A DNA stretch of 64,000 bases from assembly GCA_031431875.1 (NCBI GenBank), contig JANPEF010000082.1, forward strand, positions 4,901 to 68,900, read 5' to 3'. This document shows, one piece after another, positions 26,620 through 60,186 of this stretch (the first letter of the stretch is position 1; each line of letters starts with the position of its first letter). This stretch comes from Candidatus Eiseniibacteriota bacterium (lineage in GTDB: Bacteria > Eisenbacteria > RBG-16-71-46 > DASYSL01). The notes beneath the pieces were generated by a model. It was given only the letters and a program-made list of their open reading frames with translations, was not told the origin of the DNA and made no database searches. Both the position numbers and the translations under genes were made by a program.

Positions 26620-27597
26620 GTGCGTATCGTCTTTCTCGGAACACCCGAGTTCGCCGTGCCGTCGCTCGAGGCTCTCGCCGCGCGCTTCGACGTGGCGCTG
26701 GTCGTGGCGCAGCCGGATCGTCCGCGTGGTCGCGGACGCGAGATCGCCCCGCCGCCGGTCAAGGCGCGCGCATTCGAGCTGGGGCTGCCGGTGCTGCAAG
26801 TCGAGAAACCGAACCGCCCCGGCGTCGTCGCTGCGCTCACGGCCGTGCATGCCGACCTGTTCGTGGTGGTCGCCTACGGCGCGCTCCTCTCGCCTGTGCT
26901 CCTTGCGGCGCCGCGCCTTGGTTGCATCAACCTGCATGCGTCGTTGCTACCAGCCTACCGTGGCGCCTCGCCCATCCAGGCGGCGATCCTCGACGGGCGC
27001 ACGACGACAGGGAACACGACGATGTGGATGGCCGAGGGGCTGGACACCGGTGACGTGATCCTGTCGCGCGAGATCGCGATCGGTCCCGACGAGACCGCAG
27101 GCGAACTGTCGACGCGACTGGCGGTCGACGGCGCCGCGCTCCTCGTCGCGACGGTCGAGCAGATCGAAGCGGGGACCGCGCCGCGCACGCCGCAGGATGG
27201 GGCGGGTGTGACTCTGACGAAGAAGATCAGGAAGGACGACGGCGGGCTCGACTTCATGGCGCCGGCCGTCCGGGTTCACGACCGGGCACGGGCGATGACA
27301 CCGTGGCCGGGAGCCCAAGCAGTCTACGAAGGCACGTCGCTCCGCTTCGAGCGGACGCGCGTGGCGCCTGGTGCCGCGGACGGCACGGGTGAGAAGGACG
27401 CCGCCCCGGGGACGATCCTCGGGCCGGGCCCGGAAGGCGGGCTCGTGGTTGCATGCGGCGAAGGATGGCTCGAAGTGCTGCGGGTCCGGCCCGCGGGCAA
27501 GAACGAGATGAACGCGCTCGATTGGTGGCGCGGACTTCGCACGGGGACAGGCTCCGCCCCGCGCTTCAGCACCCCGAGCCGTGAGGAACAGAGATGA
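26620..27597 (+). CDS. fmt: Methionyl-tRNA formyltransferase
   Basis: FLGTPEFA, QPDRP.GRG, NLHASLLP.YRGA.PI, LDTGD, PWPG. Confidence 0.96.
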   Translation: MRIVFLGTPEFAVPSLEALAARFDVALVVAQPDRPRGRGREIAPPPVKARAFELGLPVLQVEKPNRPGVVAALTAVHADLFVVVAYGALLSPVLLAAPRLGCINLHASLLPAYRGASPIQAAILDGRTTTGNTTMWMAEGLDTGDVILSREIAIGPDETAGELSTRLAVDGAALLVATVEQIEAGTAPRTPQDGAGVTLTKKIRKDDGGLDFMAPAVRVHDRARAMTPWPGAQAVYEGTSLRFERTRVAPGAADGTGEKDAAPGTILGPGPEGGLVVACGEGWLEVLRVRPAGKNEMNALDWWRGLRTGTGSAPRFSTPSREEQR

Positions 27598-45878: not shown

Positions 45879-46766
45879 GTGACGGCCTTCGTCGCGGCGG
45901 CGCTGGCCGCGGTGGTGCTCGCGGGCGTCGGGGTGCCCGACGGCGCGGCGGCCCGGCGCACCCGCTCGCCGCGCCCGGCCTCCGGCGCGGACTCGAACAC
46001 GATCGTCTACGTCGTCGATGAATCGACCAGCGCGGCGCATACGCTCGTGCACGAGATCCGTTCCAACTACGGCGGCGACGACAACTTCGCGGCCATGGAC
46101 GGGATCCGCTACTACATCACCTACGTCATGCCCGGTCCCGAGGGCGCGCCGGTGCGCACCTGGACCGAGGCGCACTACATCTGGCTGCACGGCGCGCCGC
46201 GGGCGCGCATCGAGACCGTCGAGGACAGCACGGTCATCCTGGTCAACGGCGACACGACGCACGTGCGCCGTGCCGGCCGGTGGATCGACGATCCGGTCCC
46301 GGTCGCGGCCGCGCGCGAGCAGGCGCTCGACGCGATCTGGGCGGCGCGCCTGCCGCGCAACCTCAACCACCCCGGCATCCGCGCCCGCCAGCTTGCCGAG
46401 GCGCAGCGCGGCGTGCCGTTCACCACGCGCTACTTCTACGAGCATCCCGGACTCGACCGGCCCGAGGGCACCATCCTCGAGGTCACGTTCGCGCCGCCGG
46501 CATACACGCTGCAGCGGCTCTACACCTTCGATCCGCGCGCGAAGGCGTGGACGATCCTCGAACTCGCCGACGACAAGAGCCGCTACGACTGGACGTGGGC
46601 CGAGCGGCGCACGTTGCGCGCCGCGAACGCCGCGGGCGAGCCCGGGCCGATCCTGTGGACGGCGCTGGTGCAGGACATGCAACTCGAGGGCCGCATGCCG
46701 GACCTCCTGCTGTCGCCGCCCGATGCCGGTGCCGGCGTGGTGAGCACCCCGTCGAAGGGACGCTGA
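45879..46766 (+). CDS. Exported hypothetical protein, possibly LolA-like beta fold
   Basis: Hydrophobic N-terminal signal; 'YGG...F......Y' then a beta-rich region; tightly packed between the kinase and the regulator. Confidence 0.6.
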   Translation: MTAFVAAALAAVVLAGVGVPDGAAARRTRSPRPASGADSNTIVYVVDESTSAAHTLVHEIRSNYGGDDNFAAMDGIRYYITYVMPGPEGAPVRTWTEAHYIWLHGAPRARIETVEDSTVILVNGDTTHVRRAGRWIDDPVPVAAAREQALDAIWAARLPRNLNHPGIRARQLAEAQRGVPFTTRYFYEHPGLDRPEGTILEVTFAPPAYTLQRLYTFDPRAKAWTILELADDKSRYDWTWAERRTLRAANAAGEPGPILWTALVQDMQLEGRMPDLLLSPPDAGAGVVSTPSKGR

Positions 46767-46771
46767 ACGCG

Positions 46772-48349
46772 ATGGCCGACGAGACCAGGAAGCGTATCCT
46801 CTGGGCGGACGACGAGATCGACCTGCTGCGCCCTCATATCCTGTACCTCGAGGGGAAGGGCTACGTCGTCACGCCGGCGATGAACGGCGAGGACGCGCTC
46901 GAGCGCGTGCAACGGGAGCCGTTCGATGTCGTGCTGCTCGACGAGATGATGCCGGGCATGGGCGGCCTCGCCACGCTGGCCGCGATCAAGGAGCACCAGC
47001 CGACGCTGCCCGTGATCCTCGTCACCAAGAGCGAGCAGGAAGAACTCATGAACGAGGCGCTCGGCCGGCGCATCACCGACTACCTGATCAAGCCCGTGAG
47101 CCCGAGCCAGATCTGGCTGGCGATCAAGAAGGTGTTCGAGACGCAGGCGCTGCAGCAGGACCGCTCGGCGCGCGACTACGTCGGTCACGCGCGCTGGATC
47201 GCCGAGCTCGACACCAAGCGCGTGGACGCGGCGGGCTGGCTCGACGTGAGCCGCCGCCTGACCGCGTGGGACCTGGCGCTCGAGCACCTGTCCGAGCCCG
47301 GACTCAAGCAGGCCCACGCCGACAGCCGCCGCGAGCTCAACCAGGAGTTCGGACGCTTCATCGAGGAGCAGTATCCGCGCTGGGTGAAGGCGCCTGCGGG
47401 CGAACGGCCCATGCTCTCGGTCGATATCATCGAGCGCAAGGTGGTGCCGCACCTCAAGGCCGGCAAGCGCGTCACCTTCATCGTCATGGATTGCCTGCGC
47501 TTCGACCAGTGGCTGGCGCTGGCCCCGCTGCTCGAGCCGTACTTCGACATGGTGACCGAGCCCTACTACGGGCTTCTGCCCACGGCCACGCCGTACGCGC
47601 GCAACGCGCTGTTCTCGGGTCTGTTCCCCGACGAGATGGGCAAGAAGCACCCCGAGTGGTGGAACGAGGACACCAAGGACGACCGCAGCAAGAACCGCTT
47701 CGAACGCCAGTTCCTCGAGGCACAGCTGGCCCGCCTCAAGGCCACCCCCGAGAAACCGATCAAGTACGTGAAGATCTACACCATGGACGAGAGCCAGAAC
47801 GTGCGTCGGCAGGTGAGCACCTACGGTTCCCTCGGCATGGCCGCGCTGGTGTTCAACTTCATCGACATCATGGCGCACGGCCGCAGCGAGTCGGACCTGC
47901 TGCAGGAACTGGCTCCCGACGAGATCGCGTTCCGCGCCGTGCTGCGCGCCTGGTTCGCCCACTCGCCGCTGTTCGACGTGATGAAGGCGCTGTCGCTGCA
48001 GGACAACGTGATCGTCCTGACCACGGACCACGGCGCGGTGATGGGCAAGCGCGCGGCGCTGGTCCACGGTAACCGCGAGACCTCGACCAACCTGCGCTAC
48101 AAGTACGGCACCAACCTCACGGTCGACTCGCGCCAGGCGATCAACATCAAGGATCCGACCGCATGGCGCCTGCCGCCCGGCCACAACAAGAACTACCTGC
48201 TGGCGCGCGAGGACTACTACTTCGTCTACCCGACCCGCTTCCACGAATACGAGAAGGCATTCTTCGGCACCTTCCAGCACGGCGGCGTCTCGATCGAGGA
48301 GATGATCGTGCCGTGTGTCACGCTGACGCCGAAGGGGCGCGTGGGGTGA
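46772..48349 (+). CDS. PorX-like response regulator (REC plus PglZ/alkaline-phosphatase domain)
   Basis: WADDE, LLDEMMPG, KP; DCLR.DQW, LPTAT.YARN, TTDHG, HGG.S.EEM. Confidence 0.92.
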   Translation: MADETRKRILWADDEIDLLRPHILYLEGKGYVVTPAMNGEDALERVQREPFDVVLLDEMMPGMGGLATLAAIKEHQPTLPVILVTKSEQEELMNEALGRRITDYLIKPVSPSQIWLAIKKVFETQALQQDRSARDYVGHARWIAELDTKRVDAAGWLDVSRRLTAWDLALEHLSEPGLKQAHADSRRELNQEFGRFIEEQYPRWVKAPAGERPMLSVDIIERKVVPHLKAGKRVTFIVMDCLRFDQWLALAPLLEPYFDMVTEPYYGLLPTATPYARNALFSGLFPDEMGKKHPEWWNEDTKDDRSKNRFERQFLEAQLARLKATPEKPIKYVKIYTMDESQNVRRQVSTYGSLGMAALVFNFIDIMAHGRSESDLLQELAPDEIAFRAVLRAWFAHSPLFDVMKALSLQDNVIVLTTDHGAVMGKRAALVHGNRETSTNLRYKYGTNLTVDSRQAINIKDPTAWRLPPGHNKNYLLAREDYYFVYPTRFHEYEKAFFGTFQHGGVSIEEMIVPCVTLTPKGRVG

Positions 48350-50982: not shown

Positions 50983-52301
50983 TCCCGCACGACGCGTATC
51001 GCGCGGCGCTCGAGCGCCTGTACGGTCTCGAGCGCGGCAAGACCGGCTTCGGCCTGGCGGGCACGCGCGCGCTCGTCGAGGCACTCGGCCGCCCTGACCG
51101 TGCTTTCCGCTCCGTGCACCTGGCCGGCACCAACGGCAAGGGCTCGACCGCCGCGCTGATCGAGCGCGGCCTGCGCGCCGCCGGCGCCCGCACCGGATTG
51201 TTCACCTCGCCCCATCTCGTCGACTTCCGCGAGCGCCTGCGCCTCGACGGCCGCCCCGCCGCGGCCGCCGACGTGGCGCGCGCGCTCGCCCGCGTCGAGG
51301 CCATTCCCGCGCCGCCGGGGCACCCGCGCACGTTCTTCGAGGCCACGTTCGGCCTCGGCTGCGCGCTGTTCGCCGACGCCCGGGTCGACTGGGGCGTGCT
51401 CGAGTGCGGGCTCGGCGGCCGGCTCGACGCGACCAACGTCGTCACGCCGGCGCTCGGCGTGATCACGCCGATCGGGCTCGACCACGCCGAAATCCTGGGC
51501 GACACGCTCGAGGCGATCGCCGGCGAGAAGGCCGGCATCTTCAAGTCCGGCGTCCCGGTCGTGATCGCCGCACAGGCGCCGGCCGCCCATGCCGTGCTGG
51601 TCCGCATCGCGCAGGCCGTCGGCGCGCCGCTCGAGGCGGGGTCCGAACGCGCGCGGCTCGTCGCCGTCGACCGCATCGGCCCCGAGGGCAGCGACGTGCG
51701 CTTCGACGTCGCGGGCTTCGGCGCGGTCGAAGCCCGGCTGGCACTGGTGGGCCGCCACCAGGTCGAGAACGCGCGCACTGCGCTGGCCGTGCTCTCGCTG
51801 CTGGCCGCGCGCGAGCCCGGGCTCGGGCTCGATGCCGCGTGCGCCCGCACCGCGCTGTCGAGCGTGCGCTGGCCCGGGCGCTTCGAGTCCTGCCCGGGCG
51901 AGCCGCGACTGTGGTGGGACGGGGCGCACAATCCCGATGGCGCGCGCGTCGTGCGCGCGGCGTGGCGCGAGGCGCTGGGCGATCCGCCGGGTACGCTCGT
52001 GCTCGGGGTCTCGACCGACAAGGATCTCGACGCGATGCTCGGAGCGTTCGCCGGCCCGTGGCGGCGCGTGCACGCGGTCGCCGCCGAGAGTTCGCGCGCG
52101 GTGCCGCCGGAGGCGCTGGCCGCCGCGGTCGGTCGCGCCTGGCCCGGGATCGAGGCGACGGCGCACGCGTCGGTCGCCACGGGTGTCCAGGCCGCGCTCG
52201 AACGCGCGACGGGGGACGAACGAGTGCTCGTGGCCGGTTCGCTGTTCGTCGTCGGCGAAGCCATGAGCGCGATGGGCGCGGCGGAGGTGGCGTGCTCCTG
52301 A
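50979..52301 (+). CDS. folC: Folylpolyglutamate/dihydrofolate synthase
   Basis: GTNGKGS, FTSPHL...RER, TFFE, E.GLGGRLDATN, DH...LG, EKAGI, WPGR, DGAHN, GSLF.VG. Start uncertain; a CTG overlapping the accD stop is proposed. Confidence 0.93.
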   Translation: MIPHDAYRAALERLYGLERGKTGFGLAGTRALVEALGRPDRAFRSVHLAGTNGKGSTAALIERGLRAAGARTGLFTSPHLVDFRERLRLDGRPAAAADVARALARVEAIPAPPGHPRTFFEATFGLGCALFADARVDWGVLECGLGGRLDATNVVTPALGVITPIGLDHAEILGDTLEAIAGEKAGIFKSGVPVVIAAQAPAAHAVLVRIAQAVGAPLEAGSERARLVAVDRIGPEGSDVRFDVAGFGAVEARLALVGRHQVENARTALAVLSLLAAREPGLGLDAACARTALSSVRWPGRFESCPGEPRLWWDGAHNPDGARVVRAAWREALGDPPGTLVLGVSTDKDLDAMLGAFAGPWRRVHAVAAESSRAVPPEALAAAVGRAWPGIEATAHASVATGVQAALERATGDERVLVAGSLFVVGEAMSAMGAAEVACS

Positions 52302-55300
52302 GGCGAACCGTCGCGTTTGCGATCTCCGTGCTTCTTGCCGCGATCGCGGCCGTGGTTCCGGTCGAGGGGCAGGTGGCGCCCCCGGCTTCGGCTCCGGCTG
52401 CGCCCGCGCCCGTCGATTCCGCGCGCGCGATCGCGGACACAACCGCCGCCCTCCGCGATTCCGCCGCCGTTTCACGCGACACGACCCTCCCACCCGCGAC
52501 CGCGCCTCCGGTGCGGTCGATCATCACCCAACCCCGCCGCGGCAGCAGTCCGTACAACGTCGTCGCCGATCGCCTCGAGGGGGGACGCACCGCGCTCGAG
52601 GGCGAGGTGATCATGCTCATCGGCAACGTGACGCTGTCGCGCGACGGCACGGTGGTGAAGAGCCAGACCGGCCGCTACGTGAAGCGCGAGGGCACCATTT
52701 ACCTGACCGGCGGCGTCGACGCGGTCGACGGCGGGACCCGCGTCACGGCGCTGCAGGCCGCCTACAACGAGGCGACCGACTTCCTCACCCTCATGGGGCA
52801 GGTCGTCGTGCGCGACAAGGACCTGGTGCTGGAGTCCGACCAGGGCTCGTACGACCAGTCGCGCGGCCGCGCCGAGCTGTGGAGCCGCGTGCGGGGGCGT
52901 GACAGGACGCGCACGCTCACCGCCGATCGCGTCACCTACCTGCGCGACGAGCAGGTGGCACAGGCGCGCGGGCGCGTCGTCGCCCGCGACTCGACCGAGG
53001 GGCTCACGCTGACGGGCGAGGCCATCGACTACGACCGCCGGCGCGAGTTCGCGCTCGCCACCGCGCGGCCCACGCTGGTGCAGGCCGGGAAGAACGGGAA
53101 GGGCGCGACGACGCTGGTCGGCGACACGATCACCGTCGCCACGCCCGAGCGCATCGCGACCGCCGCCGGGTCCGTGGTCATCACGCGCGACAGTCTGCGC
53201 GCCGAGGCCGGCCGCATGGTGTACTACGATCGCGAGGAGCGTGGCGTGCTGACCGGCGAGCCGCGCGCGTGGACCGACGAGGTCGACGTGCGCGGCGACT
53301 CGCTCGAGATCTTCACCCGCGACCAGGGAATCGACCGCCTGCTCGTCCTCGCCAACGGGCGCATCGAGTACCACGCCGACTCCGGCGCCGACGCCGGCGG
53401 CAGGAGCCTGCTCACCGCGCAACGCATGGACGTCTGGTTCGACGCCGCGGACGACGGCATCGACAGCCTCTACGCCACCGGCGAGGCGGCGAACGAGTTC
53501 ACGGGGAAGCCGCTGCCCGATCGCCTCTCCGAGTCGAACCGGACGACCGGCGACCTGGTGCGTCTCTACTTCGACGGGAAGGACCTGCAGGAGGCGATCG
53601 TCACCGGCAAGGCCGCGGGCACGTATCGCGCCGAGCTCGCCGCCAGCGACACCGCCGGCGCCCGCGCGAACGCCGTGGAGTACGAGGCCGACCGCATCGT
53701 CTTCGAGGTGCCGAAGAACCGCATCCGCCTCGAGCAGAATGCGGTGCTGCGCTACGAGCAGATCGCGCTGCGCGCCCCTGAGGTCCTGTTCGACGTCAAG
53801 CAGCAGGTGCTCGAGGCCCGCGGCAACCCGCAGCTCGAGGACCGCGGCGACACGTTGCGAGGCACGTCGCTGGCCTACGACCTGGAGACCCGGCGCGGGA
53901 CGGTGTTCGGCGCGCGCACGCGCTACCAGACCGGGTGGTACGCCGGGGACAAGATCCGCCGTCTCGGCGACGACGTAATCGACGTGGGCGGCGCGCGCTA
54001 CTCCACCTGCAACCTCGACGACCCGCACTACGCGTTCCGCTCGGACCGGATGAAGATCTACCTCAAGGACAAGATCATCGCCCGGCCGGTGCTGTTCACG
54101 CTCAAGCACGTCCCGTTGCTGGCGCTCCCCTTCTACGTGTTCCCCATCCGTCAGGAGCGTACGTCGGGCCTGCTCGTGCCGCAGATCCAGTTCGGCTTCG
54201 GCGACGCGACCGGTGGGTATATCCGCAACGCCGGGTACTACTTCGCGCCGAACGACTACACCGACTTCACGGTCTCGGGCGACTGGTATCCGCAGGTGCC
54301 CTCGTGGGTGCTGCGTGGCGAGGCGCGTTACAAGTCGCTGTACAAGTTCGAGGGCCAGATGCAGGGGTCGATCGGGCGCTCGTTCTACACCACGGAGGAG
54401 CGGAATTGGGACTTCCGCGCCCAGCACGCGCAGACGATCAACGACGCCACGTCGCTCACCGCGCGGGCCAACTTCACCTCGAGTGCGGACTACACGCGCG
54501 ATCCGCTCACCGGCCTGCCGCTGGCGAACCGCATCGACCGCTTCCTCACCTCGAACCTGACGCTGTCGCACCGCCGGCCCTGGGCGTCGATCAACCTGGT
54601 GCTGTCCCGCCAGGAGGATCTCGACACGAATCCGATCAGCTCGCCGCTGCCCAAGCTGCAGGAGCAACTGCCGTCGCTGTCGATCGTGCTGCCGTCGCGC
54701 ACCCTGGGCCACAAGCCGGGGGCCACCGGCGGCGCGGGCTTCCTGCCGTTCCTGTCGACCACGTACCTGGGCTTCAATGCGCGCTTCCTCAACGACCGCA
54801 CCGTCTCGACGTTCCTGCGCCGCGACGAGTCGGGCGCGATCGCGGTGTTCGATACGTCGGTCGCCCGCCGCGCCTACCAGCACGTGGTGACGCTGAACGA
54901 CAATCGCCGCCTCGGCTTCGTCAACTTCGGACCGACGTTCCGCTGGACCGAGGTCGTCTACCAATACGATGCGACAGGCAAATCGCCGTCGGCCGGCGGC
55001 ACGTGGGCGGCGGGGGCGGGCGCCTCGATGACGCTGTACGGCACCTCGCACGGCGGGCTCGGTCCGATCACCTCGATTCGCCACGTGTTCCAGCCGATCT
55101 TCTCGTACTCGTTCCAGCCCCAATTCAGCCGCTTGCGCGTGCAGGTGCCGACCAGCGACACGACGTTCGCCACCGTCGACCGCTTCCCGCCGTTCGGCGG
55201 CATCGGGCTTTCGGGCACGCGACAGAGCTTCCTGTCGGTCAACCTGGTGAACCGCTTCGAGGCCAAGGTGCGGACCGAGAAGGGCGAGCGCGTGCTGTCG

Positions 55301-55951
55301 AACCTGCTCGGGATCGGCATCAACACCGCCTACGACTTCCTGCACGAGGCCAACGGCCGGGAGACGCCATGGCAGCCGATTCTGACCACGGTGCGCGTCC
55401 AGCCACCGAACTACATCAGCGGCGACCTGTCCCTGCGCCATGATCCCGCGGTGGACAAGCTGCTGCGCAACGCTTCGGCTTCGCTGTCGTTGCGCTTCGC
55501 CGGCGGGGGGCGTCCACCGGCGGTCGCCGAGATCCCGCTGGCCGGGAACGAGGCGCAGACTCGCGGCCCGCGCGACCAACTCGTGCCGTGGAGCCTGTCG
55601 ACCTCGATCAGTTACGGGGGCAGCCGGAACGTCCTCGAGAACTGGCAGCACAGCGAGTCGGCCAACCTCGTGGCCGAGATCCAGCCCACCGCCAACTGGA
55701 CGGTGCACTACTACAACCAGATCGATCTCAACGAGCGGCGGATCGTGGCCCAGGAGTGGTCGGTCACGCGCACGCTCCATTGCTGGCAGGCGCAATTCGT
55801 GCGGCGGTTCTCGGGGGGAACGGCCGATTACTACTTCAAGATCGGGATCCTCGACCGCCCCGAGATCTTCCTCGACCGCGGCACCGCCGGGCTGGGGACG
55901 ATCGGCGGCCTGGGCTCGCTGGGTGGGATCGGGTCCTCGCTGGTGCCCTGA
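52292..55951 (+). CDS. lptD: LPS-assembly protein LptD-like, with an extended multi-OstA/LptA N-terminus
   Basis: Signal peptide after GGAGG; repeated OstA beta-jellyroll segments; STC....PHY, P...LPF..FP....R.SGLL.P, GYY, L.CW, YYFKI. Confidence 0.85.
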   Translation: MLLRRTVAFAISVLLAAIAAVVPVEGQVAPPASAPAAPAPVDSARAIADTTAALRDSAAVSRDTTLPPATAPPVRSIITQPRRGSSPYNVVADRLEGGRTALEGEVIMLIGNVTLSRDGTVVKSQTGRYVKREGTIYLTGGVDAVDGGTRVTALQAAYNEATDFLTLMGQVVVRDKDLVLESDQGSYDQSRGRAELWSRVRGRDRTRTLTADRVTYLRDEQVAQARGRVVARDSTEGLTLTGEAIDYDRRREFALATARPTLVQAGKNGKGATTLVGDTITVATPERIATAAGSVVITRDSLRAEAGRMVYYDREERGVLTGEPRAWTDEVDVRGDSLEIFTRDQGIDRLLVLANGRIEYHADSGADAGGRSLLTAQRMDVWFDAADDGIDSLYATGEAANEFTGKPLPDRLSESNRTTGDLVRLYFDGKDLQEAIVTGKAAGTYRAELAASDTAGARANAVEYEADRIVFEVPKNRIRLEQNAVLRYEQIALRAPEVLFDVKQQVLEARGNPQLEDRGDTLRGTSLAYDLETRRGTVFGARTRYQTGWYAGDKIRRLGDDVIDVGGARYSTCNLDDPHYAFRSDRMKIYLKDKIIARPVLFTLKHVPLLALPFYVFPIRQERTSGLLVPQIQFGFGDATGGYIRNAGYYFAPNDYTDFTVSGDWYPQVPSWVLRGEARYKSLYKFEGQMQGSIGRSFYTTEERNWDFRAQHAQTINDATSLTARANFTSSADYTRDPLTGLPLANRIDRFLTSNLTLSHRRPWASINLVLSRQEDLDTNPISSPLPKLQEQLPSLSIVLPSRTLGHKPGATGGAGFLPFLSTTYLGFNARFLNDRTVSTFLRRDESGAIAVFDTSVARRAYQHVVTLNDNRRLGFVNFGPTFRWTEVVYQYDATGKSPSAGGTWAAGAGASMTLYGTSHGGLGPITSIRHVFQPIFSYSFQPQFSRLRVQVPTSDTTFATVDRFPPFGGIGLSGTRQSFLSVNLVNRFEAKVRTEKGERVLSNLLGIGINTAYDFLHEANGRETPWQPILTTVRVQPPNYISGDLSLRHDPAVDKLLRNASASLSLRFAGGGRPPAVAEIPLAGNEAQTRGPRDQLVPWSLSTSISYGGSRNVLENWQHSESANLVAEIQPTANWTVHYYNQIDLNERRIVAQEWSVTRTLHCWQAQFVRRFSGGTADYYFKIGILDRPEIFLDRGTAGLGTIGGLGSLGGIGSSLVP

Positions 55952-56024
55952 GCCGACCGCCGAGGCCTCCCGTCCGCAAGTTGCAAAGCCTTGCCCGCGC
56001 GCCGCTTGGGGCGGGGGGTGCCGC

Positions 56025-56054
56025 TTGACCGGGGATTTCCCCGGCCCGTACACT
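56025..56054 (+). promoter_or_regulatory. Sigma70-type promoter of the selenoprotein gene
   Basis: TTGACC-N18-TACACT; AGGAGG RBS at 56096-56101. Confidence 0.6.
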
Positions 56055-56107
56055 CGATCCATTCGCCGTACCCGCCGGGGGGTCCCCCGGCTCACAGGAG
56101 GAACTTC

Positions 56108-57460
56108 ATGTCTGTTTCGACGCTGCGCTCGCGGGCGCTCCTGCTCGTGTTCGTGTCCCTCGTCGTCCTTGGCTGGACGGCGTCGGGCGCGCGCACGCAA
56201 GGGAAGCTGACGGGCAAGGTGCTTCCGGTCATCAGCACGTCTGATGTGATCGGTTACACCGCGCCCTGCGGCTGACACACGCCCAAGGGTGGGCTGGCCC
56301 GGCGGGCCAGTTTGATCGACAGCACGAGGATCAAGTTCGGCGATGCGGTCGTCGTCGACGCAGGCGACTGGGCTCCGGACTTCACCAAGCCCAACGAGGC
56401 TCCCAAGCTCCAGTTCCTGCTCGAGATGGCGAACCTCATGAACTACGACGCCCTCGGTGTGGGCGAGCGGGAGCTTGCGTTCGGCCTGCCGACGATCCTC
56501 GAGTTGGCCGCGAAGTCGAAGTCGCCGTTGATTTCGTCGAACCTGATCGACAAGAAGACGGGCAAGCCCGTGTTCAAGACGTCGGTCATCGTCAAGAAGG
56601 GCGGCATCAAGGTCGGCATCTTCGCGGTCCTCGGACCGAAGATCGATCTGCCGGGCAACTCCGGCGAGCTGGTCACGGTCGATGATCCGATCGCGACCGC
56701 GCAGGCCATGGTCGCCGAGTTGCGCAAGCAGGTCGACGTCATCGTCTGCCTCGCGCACCTGGGCCGCGTCGAAGGCGAGGATCTCGCCGCGCAGGTGCCG
56801 GGGATGGATGTCGTGATTCTCGCGCACCACCCGGGCTTCGTCGCCCAGGGCCGGCGCGTCAACGCGGCGATCACGGTCGCCAGCGGTGAGCAGGGCCAGA
56901 ACGTCGGCTTCACGCAGGTGACGCTCGAAGGCAAGAAGGTGATGGACCTCACCTCGGAGACGAAGATCCTGATGCCCGAGATTGGCGACCGCGGCGACAT
57001 CGCGCGGATGGTCAAGGAGTTCGACGACAAGCTGAACGAGGAACAGCGCAAGGCGCAGCAGACGCAGACGCTGCAGAACTCGTCGACGGCGCCCGGGTCG
57101 GATCAGTACCTGGGCAGCGAGAATTGCATGAGCTGCCACCCGGCGCAGTACGAGCAGTGGAAGACGACGCAGCACGCGCACGCCTTCGCCACGCTCGAGC
57201 GGACGCAGAAGGATGCGACGCCCGAGTGCGTCCAGTGCCACGTGGTCGGCTTTGGCCGGCCGGGCGGGTACGAGAACGCGTCGAAGTCGGCGAAGCTCAA
57301 GAACGTCGGTTGCGAGTCGTGCCATGGCTACGGCACGCAGCACGACATGTTCGCGAAGACCGGCGGCAAGGTGGCCGAAGCCGTCTGCCTGACCTGCCAC
57401 ACCCCGGCGAACGACGCGGGCTGGAACTACGCGGCGAAGTTGCCGCGCGTCTCGCACTAG
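56108..57460 (+). CDS. Exported selenoprotein candidate: UshA-like domain with C-G-U motif fused to a tetraheme c-type cytochrome (450 aa, Sec56)
   Basis: The ORFs ending at 56275 and starting at 56312 are in frame across one TGA (56273-56275): ...GYTAPCG-U-HTPKGGLARR...DAGD. A hairpin follows. Heme motifs CMSCH, CVQCH, CESCH, CLTCH. Confidence 0.88.
56291..56313 (+). promoter_or_regulatory. Putative bacterial SECIS element
   Basis: ggg-CTGGCCC-ggc-GGGCCAG-ttt stem-loop; the G-led apical loop starts 25 nt after the UGA. Confidence 0.7.
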
Positions 57461-57601
57461 GCGGCGGCGGGGGGCCGGGAGCGGCCCAGGGAAGGTAGCG
57501 TGCGACGCGGGCGCGGTGGTACCCTTGGCGGGTACCGCGCGCCCGCGCGGCGTTACGCCGCGGGACCCGCCTCCCCCGACTCCCTCACGCCGGAAGCGCA
57601 C

Positions 57602-58990
57602 ATGCCCCTGCAGCCCGATGGAATGACCTATTTCGAGGACATCATCCAGTCGGTCGGCAACACGCCGCTCGTCCGCCTGAACAAGATGACCAAGGGCCTC
57701 CAGGCCACCGTCCTCGCCAAGGTCGAATCGTTCAATCCCGGCGGCAGCTCGAAGGACCGGATCGGTCTCTCCATGATCCGCGCCGCCGAGGCCGACGGGA
57801 AGCTCAAGCCCGGCGGCACGATCGTCGAGTGCACCTCGGGGAACACGGGCGTCGGCCTGGCCATGGCGGCGGTCGTGCTGGGCTACAAGACCGTGTTCTG
57901 CATGCCGGACAAGGTGGCGACCGAGAAGATCAACCTCCTCAAGGCCTACGGCGCCGAGGTGGTCGTCTGCCCCACCGCAGTCTCGCCCGACTCGCCCGAG
58001 TCGTACTACCAGGTCGCTCGCCGCATCGAACGCGAGCGGCCGAATGCGTTCCTCACCAACCAGTACGACAATCCGGCGAACCCGGCGGCGCACTACCGGA
58101 CGACGGGCCCCGAACTGTGGGAGCAGACCGCGGGCAAGATCGACGTGTTCGTCACCTCGATCGGCACCGGTGGCACGATCAGCGGCACCGCGAAGTACCT
58201 GAAGGAGAAGAACCCGAAGGTCCGCATCGTCGGCGCCGACCCGATCGGCTCGATCCTCCACCAGTGGTTCCACACCCGCACCATGGGCGAGGCGCACACG
58301 TACAAGGTCGAGGGCATCGGCGAGGACTTCCTGCCCGAGGCCTACGACTGGAGCGTGATCGACGACGTCGTGCAGGTGAACGACAAGGACTCGCTGAACA
58401 CGGCGCGCCGCCTCGCCCGCGAGGAGGGCATCCTGGTCGGCGGCTCGTGCGGCACCGCGCTGCACGCCGGGCTGCTCGAGGCGAAGAAGATGAAGCAGGG
58501 CGGCGTGATCGTCGTCATGCTGCCCGACACCGGCGAGCGCTACCTGTCGAAGGTGCACAGCGACGAGTGGATGCGCGACAACCACATGCTCGATCCGGCC
58601 GAGACGCGTGTCGCCGACCTCGTCTTCGGCAAGTCGGCCGGCGGGAAGGCACTGCTGTCGGTCGCGCCGGGCGACCTCGTGCGGAAGGCGCTCGACCTCG
58701 TCCGCGCCTACGACGTGTCGCAGCTCCCGGTCCTCGAGGGCGAGGCTTCCGTCGGCACCGTGTACGACGCGGAGATCATGAAGCGCGTGCTCGACGACCC
58801 GACGGTACTCGGCCGCACGGTGCGCGAGATCATGGACCCGCCGCTGCCGGTGATCGGCGCGCAGGAACCAGTGACGCGCGTGGCGCAACTCCTCAAGCAG
58901 AAGCACGCGGCGGTGCTCGTCTCCGCCAACGGGGGAGGACCCAGCGGAATCCTCACCCGTCTCGATGTCATCTCGCTGATCGCGGAGTGA
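57602..58990 (+). CDS. Cystathionine beta-synthase (PLP) with C-terminal CBS domains
   Basis: NPGGSSKDR, TSGNTG, GTGGT, EGIG, PDTGERYLSK, CBS pair (SQLPV, GILTR.D). Alternative starts nearby, e.g. 57623. Confidence 0.92.
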   Translation: MPLQPDGMTYFEDIIQSVGNTPLVRLNKMTKGLQATVLAKVESFNPGGSSKDRIGLSMIRAAEADGKLKPGGTIVECTSGNTGVGLAMAAVVLGYKTVFCMPDKVATEKINLLKAYGAEVVVCPTAVSPDSPESYYQVARRIERERPNAFLTNQYDNPANPAAHYRTTGPELWEQTAGKIDVFVTSIGTGGTISGTAKYLKEKNPKVRIVGADPIGSILHQWFHTRTMGEAHTYKVEGIGEDFLPEAYDWSVIDDVVQVNDKDSLNTARRLAREEGILVGGSCGTALHAGLLEAKKMKQGGVIVVMLPDTGERYLSKVHSDEWMRDNHMLDPAETRVADLVFGKSAGGKALLSVAPGDLVRKALDLVRAYDVSQLPVLEGEASVGTVYDAEIMKRVLDDPTVLGRTVREIMDPPLPVIGAQEPVTRVAQLLKQKHAAVLVSANGGGPSGILTRLDVISLIAE

Positions 58991-58992
58991 GC

Positions 58993-60186
58993 ATGGTGCG
59001 CATCGACGCGAAATCCGGCCTCGGCACCCGCGCGATCCACGCGGGCAACGCCCCCGACCCGCGCACGGGCGCGGTCGCGGTGCCGGTGTACCAGACCTCG
59101 ACCTACGCGCAGGACGGATTCGGCAAGCACAAGGGCTACGAATACGCGCGCTCGCAGAACCCCACGCGCGAGGCGCTCGAGGAGAACCTGGCGTCGCTCG
59201 AGAGCGGCGCGCACGGCTTCGCCTTCGCCTCGGGCCTCGCCGCGACGACGACCCTGCTGCACCTGCTCAAGGCCGGGGACCACGTCGTGGCCTCGAACAA
59301 CATGTATGGGGGCACGTTCCGCCTGTTCGACCAGGTGTTCGCCCACCTCGGCATGCGCTTCTCCTACGTGAACACGGCCGACCTGGCCGCGGTCGAGGCG
59401 GCGATCGAGCCGGCGACGAAGCTCATCTACATCGAGACGCCGACCAATCCGTTGCTCACCATCACGGACCTCGCGGGCATCGCGGCGATCGCCCAGCGGC
59501 ACGAACTGCTCACCGCGTGCGACAACACGTTCGCCACGCCGATGCTGCAGCGGCCGATCGAGTTCGGCTTCGACATCGTGCTCCACTCGACGACCAAGTA
59601 CCTGAACGGGCACAGCGACATGGTCGGCGGCGCACTGGTCGTCAAGCGCGACGACCTGGCGACCCGCCTGCGCTTCCTGCAGAACGCGGTGGGGGCGGTG
59701 CCCGGTCCGTGGGACTGCTGGCTCGCGCTGCGCGGCATCAAGACGCTGCCCCTGCGCATGGAGCGCCACGAGAAGAATGCCGGCGACCTCGCCGTGTGGC
59801 TCGCCGGCCAGGCGACGGGACCGCGCGGGCCGAAGGTGATCTATCCCGGCCTGCCCGATCATCCCGGGCATGCGCTGGCCAGGAAGCAGATGGCGGGGTT
59901 CGGCGGGATCATCTCGCTCGAGGTCCCCGATCTCGAGACCGGCCAGCGATTCTGCGAGGCGCTCACCCTGTTCACGCTCGGCGAATCGCTCGGCGGCGTC
60001 GAGTCGCTGGTGACGCATCCGGCGAGCATGACGCACGCCTCGGTGCCCAGGGCTCAGCGCGAGGCCACGGGCTTCACCGATGGCCTGGTCCGGCTCTCGG
60101 TCGGCTGCGAGGACGTTGACGACCTGCGGGCGGACCTGGAACGCGGGCTGGCGGCCTCCTCGGCAGCCGTGGCGGCGGCTCGCTAA
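58993..60186 (+). CDS. Cystathionine gamma-lyase/synthase
   Basis: YQTSTY, Y.R..NPTR, YGGT, ETPTNP, DNTF, HSTTKYLNGHSD, SLGGVESL, RLSVG.E. Confidence 0.94.
   Translation: MVRIDAKSGLGTRAIHAGNAPDPRTGAVAVPVYQTSTYAQDGFGKHKGYEYARSQNPTREALEENLASLESGAHGFAFASGLAATTTLLHLLKAGDHVVASNNMYGGTFRLFDQVFAHLGMRFSYVNTADLAAVEAAIEPATKLIYIETPTNPLLTITDLAGIAAIAQRHELLTACDNTFATPMLQRPIEFGFDIVLHSTTKYLNGHSDMVGGALVVKRDDLATRLRFLQNAVGAVPGPWDCWLALRGIKTLPLRMERHEKNAGDLAVWLAGQATGPRGPKVIYPGLPDHPGHALARKQMAGFGGIISLEVPDLETGQRFCEALTLFTLGESLGGVESLVTHPASMTHASVPRAQREATGFTDGLVRLSVGCEDVDDLRADLERGLAASSAAVAAAR

Follow-up and report, generated by a model that had tools for sequence, protein, structure and literature searches.

The gene at positions 56108-57460 (forward strand) of a 64,000-nucleotide stretch of DNA from a Candidatus Eiseniibacteriota bacterium (contig JANPEF010000082.1; the whole stretch is called the window below) is a genuine selenocysteine-encoding gene, judging by the classical selenocysteine (Sec)/Cys signature of its in-frame UGA, codon 56, among relatives and by the complete Sec machinery of the genome. 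Its product is an exported 450-aa protein from an Eisenbacteria-like metagenome-assembled genome (MAG), a member of the curated family NF041198, and it adds no new kind of system. The gene is real but has been mis-called by gene callers. We count its structure, the Sec/Cys column, the Sec machinery, the folds of its two domains, the loss of metal ligands and the family membership as established. As to what the protein does, we favor with moderate confidence the explanation that it is an exported Sec protein in which a dead nucleotidase fold carries a C-G-U redox centre that would exchange electrons with the hemes of a C-terminal cytochrome domain.

The coding sequence starts with ATG at 56108, to which a Shine-Dalgarno sequence AGGAGG (56096-56101) lies 6 nt 5', and stops with TAG at 57458-57460. 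Read with the TGA of codon 56 as Sec (U), the frame has no other stop and encodes 450 residues, of which only residue 56 is U; the surrounding sequence is YTAPCGUHTPKGGLARR. The motif C54-G55-U56 is encoded by TGC GGC TGA (56267-56275), the Sec codon itself occupying 56273-56275. The frame past the TGA stays open for 394 codons (56276-57460), and its GC content at the three codon positions (0.62/0.42/0.93) follows the pattern of real genes in this DNA. Residues 1 to about 28 (56108-56191) contain two Arg, the hydrophobic run ALLLVFVSLVVLGW and the sequence TASGA, and look like a signal peptide of the secretory (Sec) type, with a cleavage site placed by eye; the AlphaFold2 (AF2) model has an isolated helix here, residues 6-25, with low predicted local distance difference test (pLDDT) values. 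This putative signal peptide is followed by a degenerate 5'-nucleotidase/metallophosphoesterase domain (residues about 37-295, 56216-56992; profile search of the PDB, Foldseek), a long linker helix (residues 296-325, 56993-57082; AF2 secondary structure) and a tetraheme cytochrome c554-like domain (residues about 330-450, 57095-57457; Pfam PF13435, PDB 1bvb, NF041198). Four CxxCH motifs lie at residues 340-344, 374-378, 402-406 and 427-431 (57125-57139, 57227-57241, 57311-57325 and 57386-57400). An initial annotation, made from the sequence alone, had described the AGGAGG, the ATG, the signal-peptide-like start, the in-frame TGA, the 394 open codons and the four CxxCH, all of which can be read directly. 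It had also placed a promoter ahead of the gene. A sigma-70-like candidate, TTGACC-18-TACACT, is indeed present at 56025-56054 (one such site found versus 0.2 expected in shuffles), but it is a consensus match only, at 9 of 12 positions.

The genome that contains the window (G000, 98.45% complete) encodes everything that the initial annotation had suggested looking for in support of a selenoprotein, namely selA, selB, selD and the tRNA-Sec specified by selC. The selA and selD products score above their curated cut-offs, at 461.6 and 373.7 bits, respectively, and selB reaches 334.6 bits versus a cut-off of 242. The tRNA-Sec scores 68 bits versus 47 and is read by ARAGORN as tRNA-SeC with the anticodon UCA (tca). 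The expectation that homologues would carry Cys or UGA at residue 56 also held, in every homologue covering this column. Among the 120 protein homologues listed, 17 were confirmed as full-length with Cys at column 56, and in all 17 (36-65% identity) this Cys stands inside an invariant P-C-G-C. At the nucleotide level, one genome per species was sampled, and 599 pattern matches gave 351 confirmed relatives, from which 80 loci were kept. Two of these are cut before column 56 and were not counted; in 83 high-scoring segment pairs (HSPs) from the other 78, the codon at this column is TGA in 44, TGC in 25, TGT in 14, and nothing else. Both L020, a 95%-identical orthologue found in a different assembly, and L021, an orthologue of 43% identity, keep the TGA. 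In 44 of 44 Sec forms, Sec takes the place of the second Cys of C-G-C.

These data also bear on the opposite view of the TGA, as a plain stop within a pseudogene, as an assembly error, or as the boundary between two genes, one for a 55-aa peptide and one for a 382-aa cytochrome starting from TTG at 56312. It is this 382-aa form that gene callers annotate; the database copy (P0003, 100% identity) is the same truncated product, and elsewhere in this genome TGA does end genes, for instance the upstream LptD gene (55949-55951). Nevertheless, all 83 HSPs, drawn from many phyla, have TGA or Cys at the exact column, the Sec machinery is complete, and the 382-aa form would be without the core strand 38-43, the invariant motif and the signal peptide needed for heme attachment. 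This TTG-start form has no hydrophobic N-terminus, and the initial annotation was right in that the signal peptide encoded further 5' is needed. One contig, assembled in another study, covers the entire stretch around the site, and a contig from an RNA library spans 56182-57550; none of the 40 contig differences listed, out of 100, falls at 56273-56275, these being assembled contigs in which holes in the cover are uninformative. Since the column is restricted to TGA or Cys across relatives, neither an assembly error nor a nonsense mutation private to one strain can explain the TGA, and the plain-stop view as a whole can be given next to no credence. The selenoprotein assignment is thus upheld: homologues have nothing but Cys or UGA at this position, and the genome has the means to decode it.

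Decoding of UGA-56 as Sec by SelA, SelB, SelD and tRNA-Sec would be aided by a hairpin resembling a bacterial selenocysteine insertion sequence (SECIS). It lies at 56293-56311 (forward strand), with an 8-bp stem, GCUGGCCC / GGGCCAGU, that begins 17 nt past the UGA and a loop GGC; this spacing and loop we take to be like those of bacterial SECIS elements. Two observations speak against such a role. In the window sequence alone, the predicted fold is unexceptional (z -1.33; 23 of 200 shuffles fold equally well), and the hairpin overlaps the codons of a conserved peptide, GGLARRA, which is common to Cys forms and dictates much of it. An Rfam scan of 55900-57700 gave nothing near significance (best E 0.37), and RNAalifold found no consensus structure in 45 Sec-form segments. 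The comparison of relatives leans the other way. The 42-nt segment has a mean minimum free energy of -15.2 kcal/mol in the 44 Sec forms versus -12.0 in 39 Cys forms (Mann-Whitney p 2e-4). When the segments were recoded synonymously with each gene's own codon usage, the native Sec forms exceeded the recoded ones in stability (mean z -0.58, p 5e-5), the Cys forms did not differ significantly (mean z -0.22, p 0.14), and Sec forms were below Cys forms at p 0.034. The helix named above is paired in 75.6% of cells of the alignment of 45 Sec forms, a value reached by 0 of 500 shuffles and compared with 29-48% in slid controls, and 41 helix cells are changed on both sides. In the Cys-form alignment, which includes the window row, pairing amounts to 54.4% of cells. 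The sequences compared are related to one another, and because the hairpin was named by hand after RNAalifold had come back blank, both pair counts lean towards the window-derived structure. Taken together, the comparison of relatives favors a SECIS role for the predicted hairpin. As a separate observation, many short contigs of other organisms from four metagenome runs match the window only at 56264-56313, from PCG-UGA through the hairpin, and their flanks encode ...TTDVKGKT(S/G); such 50-nt-only matches point to an unusual conservation of the UGA-to-hairpin segment at the nucleotide level.

The product belongs to NCBIfam NF041198, 'UshA-like (seleno)protein' (UshA_like_PCGU, an equivalog model), with 290 bits versus a cut-off of 275 when U is replaced by C for scoring. 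In this comparison, residues 39-277 align with positions 24-271 of the 519-position profile, and the C-terminal 151 aa alone (residues 300-450) match positions 370-518 with 126.5 bits, so that the curated model already contains the cytochrome domain. The P-C-G-[U/C] motif near the mature N-terminus, a trait of NF041198, is present. In nothing essential does the product differ from the family: score class, motif and both halves of the profile are the same, and only the length, 450 aa versus 519 profile positions, sets it apart, the C-terminal tail of longer members being absent. The fusion of an UshA-like fold to a tetraheme c554-like domain was correctly recognized in the initial annotation, as found by Foldseek, the PDB profile search and Pfam, but the architecture is less new than was implied there, the cytochrome being part of NF041198. 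The remark that UshA-like CxU selenoproteins had been noticed computationally is borne out as well: 'COG0737 UshA-like, CxU' stands in the table of the 2008 Global Ocean Sampling (GOS) selenoproteome study, with 76 Sec sequences from 20 samples (PMC2398784), UshA-like CxU proteins are listed again in a 2022 review (PMC9312934), and a list in a 2026 review includes them with reference to NF041198 (PMC13188914). Our literature search, which did not extend to supplementary lists, returned no paper in which the fusion with a cytochrome, the lost metal site or a function is described. From the NF041198 match and the selenoprotein lists since 2008, the protein is a member of a known and curated family.

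On the product itself, Pfam finds only Cytochrome_C554 (PF13435) and weaker multiheme families, all of them cytochrome families past residue 327. The N-terminal fold became apparent from a family profile searched against the PDB, which matched the Thermus 5'-nucleotidase 2z1a (E 1.2e-27) as well as other 5'-nucleotidases and 2',3'-cyclic phosphodiesterases. An AF2 model built from a 64-row alignment (mean pLDDT 86.9, predicted template modelling score, pTM, 0.70) gave 3ivd, 2z1a and UshA as top Foldseek matches, with E about 1e-22 over about 300-335 columns, linker helix included. As the 5'-nucleotidase alignments reach through the linker helix, the cytochrome domain sits where UshA has its nucleotide-binding domain. 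Searched with a Cys-form homologue, the ESM Atlas holds many large clusters of the same architecture, either unnamed or called 'cytochrome c554' or '5'-nucleotidase-related'. The product thus resembles UshA of E. coli, the Thermus enzyme 2z1a and CD73 in the metallophosphoesterase fold of its N-domain, in the long linker helix and in the structural motifs GG-x-ARR, DxG, SAN and GxD. It differs from them in that the tetraheme cytochrome replaces the nucleotide-binding domain, no C-terminal 5'-nucleotidase substrate-binding domain being found by the Pfam scan of the product, and in that the dimetal motifs (DxH, GD in relatives, GNHE and GHxH) are replaced.

The replacement of the metal ligands, which the initial annotation had noted as DxH to DVI and GNHE to GERE, was evident in an alignment with a canonical 5'-nucleotidase of the same genome (C28), whose DLHGH, DAGD, GNHE and GHTH align with DVIGY, DAGD, GERE and AHHP. 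Relatives show DVK, DAGG, G(D/E)R(E/D), SQLG and GRNV at the metal-ligand positions, and in them the aspartate of GD, the histidine of SHxG and the whole of GHxH are gone as well. The dimetal ligand set of a functional phosphoesterase (DxH, GD, GNH[E/D], H, GHxH) is accordingly incomplete in the product. In 84 family sequences, the only fully invariant residues of the N-domain are C54, G55, C/U56, G61 and G86, with C-G-[C/U] present in 84 of 84; the near-invariant residues G49, G62, R65, D84, N145 and D234 belong to motifs common to true nucleotidases. As far as alignments can tell, the metal ligands of the 5'-nucleotidases are lost family-wide, C-G-C/U is the sole new invariant site, and the product is not a phosphoesterase.

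The cytochrome domain scores 65.6 bits with PF13435 (gathering cut-off 20.8), and its PDB profile match to cytochrome c554, 1bvb, has E 2.4e-15. Exactly four CxxCH are present in 79 of the 84 family sequences, three in one and none in four. Three candidate distal His are conserved, H356 in 81/84, H412 in 80/84 and the column of H450 in 66/84, and no conserved Met was found in the family alignment. In its four CxxCH, its PF13435 match and its three candidate distal His the domain is like cytochrome c554 of Nitrosomonas europaea (1bvb/1ft5); unlike that free 211-aa carrier of the hydroxylamine pathway, it makes up about 120 residues at the C-terminus of a protein whose other part is an enzyme-like domain. 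With three distal His and no Met, one heme is left without an obvious sixth ligand, and Sec56 (or Cys54) could be imagined as the axial ligand of this heme, or as contributing to a metal site between the two domains, in analogy to the His/Cys-ligated hemes of TsdA, SoxAX and DsrJ. However, one heme of cytochrome c554 is itself five-coordinate, and three distal His are therefore enough for four hemes. Moreover, cytochrome-less paralogues, the four sequences of 84 without CxxCH, keep C-G-C/U, from which it follows that the motif works without hemes in cis. We consider a ligand role of this kind quite improbable. Tandem paralogues occur in L020, L029, L058, L061 and L071, and the second copies in L020 (4733-5551), L029 (2771-3583) and L058 (4835-5785) have no cytochrome domain and still keep C-G-C/U. 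In L020, the Cys paralogue lies directly downstream of the orthologue; the window has no such copy. Adjacent family pairs in which the first copy contains one TGA and the second none were also observed in Planctomycetota (G111:C2:163400-166252, G152:C30:79932-82784, G061:C24:148129-151003 and G086:C20:101098-104000).

The favored explanation, a redox centre on a dead nucleotidase fold, can be put as follows. The mature protein would be periplasmic, with an N-domain whose two-metal site is abolished and a four-heme domain beyond the linker helix, which is a usual feature of the family. C54-G-U56 lies in the loop after strand beta-1, where true nucleotidases hold the DxH ligand loop. The Cys54/Sec56 pair would cycle between a selenenylsulfide and the reduced thiol/selenol, and this two-electron chemistry would be coupled to the one-electron heme chain and, through it, to periplasmic cytochromes and the respiratory chain. 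The wiring of the Cys/Sec site to the hemes, already proposed in the initial annotation, remains presumptive. The likeliest clients would be thiols or disulfides, of proteins or of small molecules, for example thioredoxin-fold partners, and the protein could act as an oxidase or as a reductase. This thiol/disulfide version is favored because thioredoxin-fold proteins are encoded next to the family gene in 15 of 78 loci and because of a recent experimental precedent for C-G-C, the periplasmic active site of MauE, a DsbB-like disulfide generator (bioRxiv 10.64898/2026.03.05.709764). In ten of these loci (Nitrospinota, Nitrospirota and related groups), the gene immediately downstream encodes an exported DsbA-like CxxC protein, with gaps of -30 to +39 nt in nine of the ten and overlapping stop-to-stop frames in L088; in five Planctomycetota loci, the downstream gene encodes a 1223-aa thioredoxin-domain/HEAT protein. 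A complex prediction for the N-domain of a Nitrospinaceae member (L064) with its DsbA-like neighbor returned 'no answer' (score 0.00), which weighs neither way.

That Sec never takes the first place of the pair in the 44 Sec forms would also fit an attacking selenolate with a resolving Cys, that is, a Sec-dependent periplasmic peroxidase in which peroxide oxidises Sec56, Cys54 resolves and the hemes re-reduce the pair. Many bacterial Sec/Cys families are peroxidase-like. In profile scans, though, the product showed no similarity to the peroxiredoxin, GPx or CcpA families, no oxidative-stress genes are found among conserved neighbors, and the family is common in strict anaerobes (Desulfobulbaceae and Syntrophaceae loci). 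A peroxidase is on these grounds very improbable.

A more specific version of thiol chemistry at C-G-U is that C-G-U or C-G-C together with four c-type hemes makes up a new class of soluble periplasmic thiol:cytochrome c oxidoreductase acting on thioredoxin-fold partners. We put this forward tentatively, as a rather unlikely but specific possibility. If it were true, electrons would pass straight to the c-type cytochrome pool, in a heme-based bacterial counterpart of the mitochondrial Mia40-Erv1-cytochrome c relay, and the family would offer a quinone-independent alternative to DsbB, VKOR and MauE. With MauE the product shares the periplasmic C-G-C/U motif and, in the ten loci mentioned, a DsbA-like CxxC neighbor. 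Unlike MauE, DsbB and VKOR, which are membrane proteins, it is soluble, has an unrelated fold and would use hemes, not quinone, so that the likeness could be one of function only. The source genome, 98.45% complete, yielded no DsbB, VKOR, Thioredoxin_4-type DsbA or credible MauE; the sole MauE-like match (C75:11048-11323, 21.5 bits) has no CxC or CxxC and appears DoxX-like by eye. Five other family-carrying genomes have neither DsbB nor VKOR, with MauE in two of the five. The source genome, G002, G003 and G005 are without all three, which is weak evidence alone.

Several findings weigh against the favored redox explanation. The neighbors of the gene in this genome, LptD, cystathionine beta-synthase (CBS) and cystathionine gamma-lyase (CGL), include no redox partner. 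No DsbA-like gene was found in the source genome. Thioredoxin-fold neighbors are limited to the 15 of 78 loci given above. Finally, the idea that the family replaces DsbB, VKOR or MauE was rejected as a general rule, as 151 Planctomycetota genomes showed no phyletic complementarity: one or more of DsbB, VKOR and MauE occurred in 44 of 81 family-positive versus 27 of 70 family-negative genomes, an odds ratio of 1.9 (p 0.07) in the direction opposite to replacement, where the positive set was defined by E <= 1e-20 and may include non-family nucleotidases or cytochromes. In the course of this comparison, two homologues of membrane disulfide generators with in-frame TGA codons were observed. A Planctomycetota MauE homologue (L101, G030:C12:47500-48500, match 47809-48156) reads ...APT-U-G-C-WG.... 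Its TGA falls at the C-x-C active site of MauE, after which come an aromatic residue and Gly, and this homologue could be a Sec-containing version of MauE. A VKOR homologue (L102, G134:C18:26800-27800, match 27104-27508) reads ...EPC-P-L-U-IAGH..., and its C-x-x-U, at what seems to be the redox CxxC, makes it a candidate for a Sec-containing VKOR.

The surroundings of the gene in the window were also considered. Upstream lies the very large LptD gene (51404-55951, up to 1515 aa). Downstream follow the genes for CBS (57602-58990) and CGL (59002-60186), with DUF520 next. The 141-nt spacer between the selenoprotein gene and CBS contains a GC-rich hairpin (57495-57556, forward strand) with no U-tract; a 140-nt stretch of the spacer folds at -92 kcal/mol (z -2.52, equaled by 2 of 200 shuffles). 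The terminator scan did not flag the hairpin, which could end the transcript. LptD stands upstream in 17 and HU in 14 of the 78 loci, in Eisenbacteria, Krumholzibacteriota and Fibrobacteraceae, with HU between LptD and the gene. The order LptD-HU-gene-exonuclease reads as inherited housekeeping synteny and hence carries no functional weight. Elsewhere in the window, 46022-48346 encodes a response-regulator receiver domain fused to a PglZ domain.

The CBS and CGL genes, belonging to cysteine/H2S metabolism, follow the gene here and in L020, L021, L035 and L053, and L058 has a CGL cluster. This arrangement would be in line with a substrate other than a thiol or disulfide, a small inorganic chalcogen or metalloid compound (sulfide, polysulfide, thiosulfate, selenite or arsenite) that would be oxidised or reduced at C-G-U, on the model of the heme-linked sulfur enzymes TsdA, SoxAX, SoxB and octaheme tetrathionate reductase. 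Weak homology to SoxB exists (TIGR04486, 74 bits versus a cut-off of 550; PDB SoxB, E about 1e-11), and the table of a review counts several sulfur-handling cytochromes among selenoproteins. Yet CBS and CGL are cytoplasmic enzymes and their linkage is limited to one lineage, and no sox, dsr, psr or ars genes are found among conserved neighbors. The likeness to SoxB lies in the shared metallophosphoesterase/5'-nucleotidase superfamily fold and the periplasmic location; true 5'-nucleotidases outscore SoxB, the dimanganese ligands of SoxB are absent from the product, and SoxB has neither hemes nor a C-G-C/U motif. An inorganic substrate of this kind is therefore regarded as unlikely, somewhat less so than a ligand role of Sec56, and the thiol/disulfide version of the redox explanation is preferred to it.

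The family loci span Eisenbacteria, Krumholzibacteriota, Fibrobacteraceae, Acidobacteriota, Planctomycetota, Nitrospinota, Latescibacterota, Thermodesulfobacteriota and others. A family match at E <= 1e-20 is present in 81 of 151 sampled Planctomycetota genomes, although some of the matches may be other nucleotidases or cytochromes, and Sec is used by about half of the sampled family genes. Many of the protein homologues listed, 339-382 aa in length, cover 76-85% of the query, as would be expected of N-terminal truncation, and some are shorter and without the cytochrome. Truncation at the UGA strips off both the signal peptide and the sole invariant motif, which conceals the family in the annotation of MAGs. 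Widespread, mechanistically intriguing and systematically mis-annotated, it has already been catalogued, and the window provides a clean and complete example of it together with intact Sec machinery. A heme-wired Cys/Sec centre, if true, would represent an unusual coupling of two-electron thiol chemistry to a respiratory chain.

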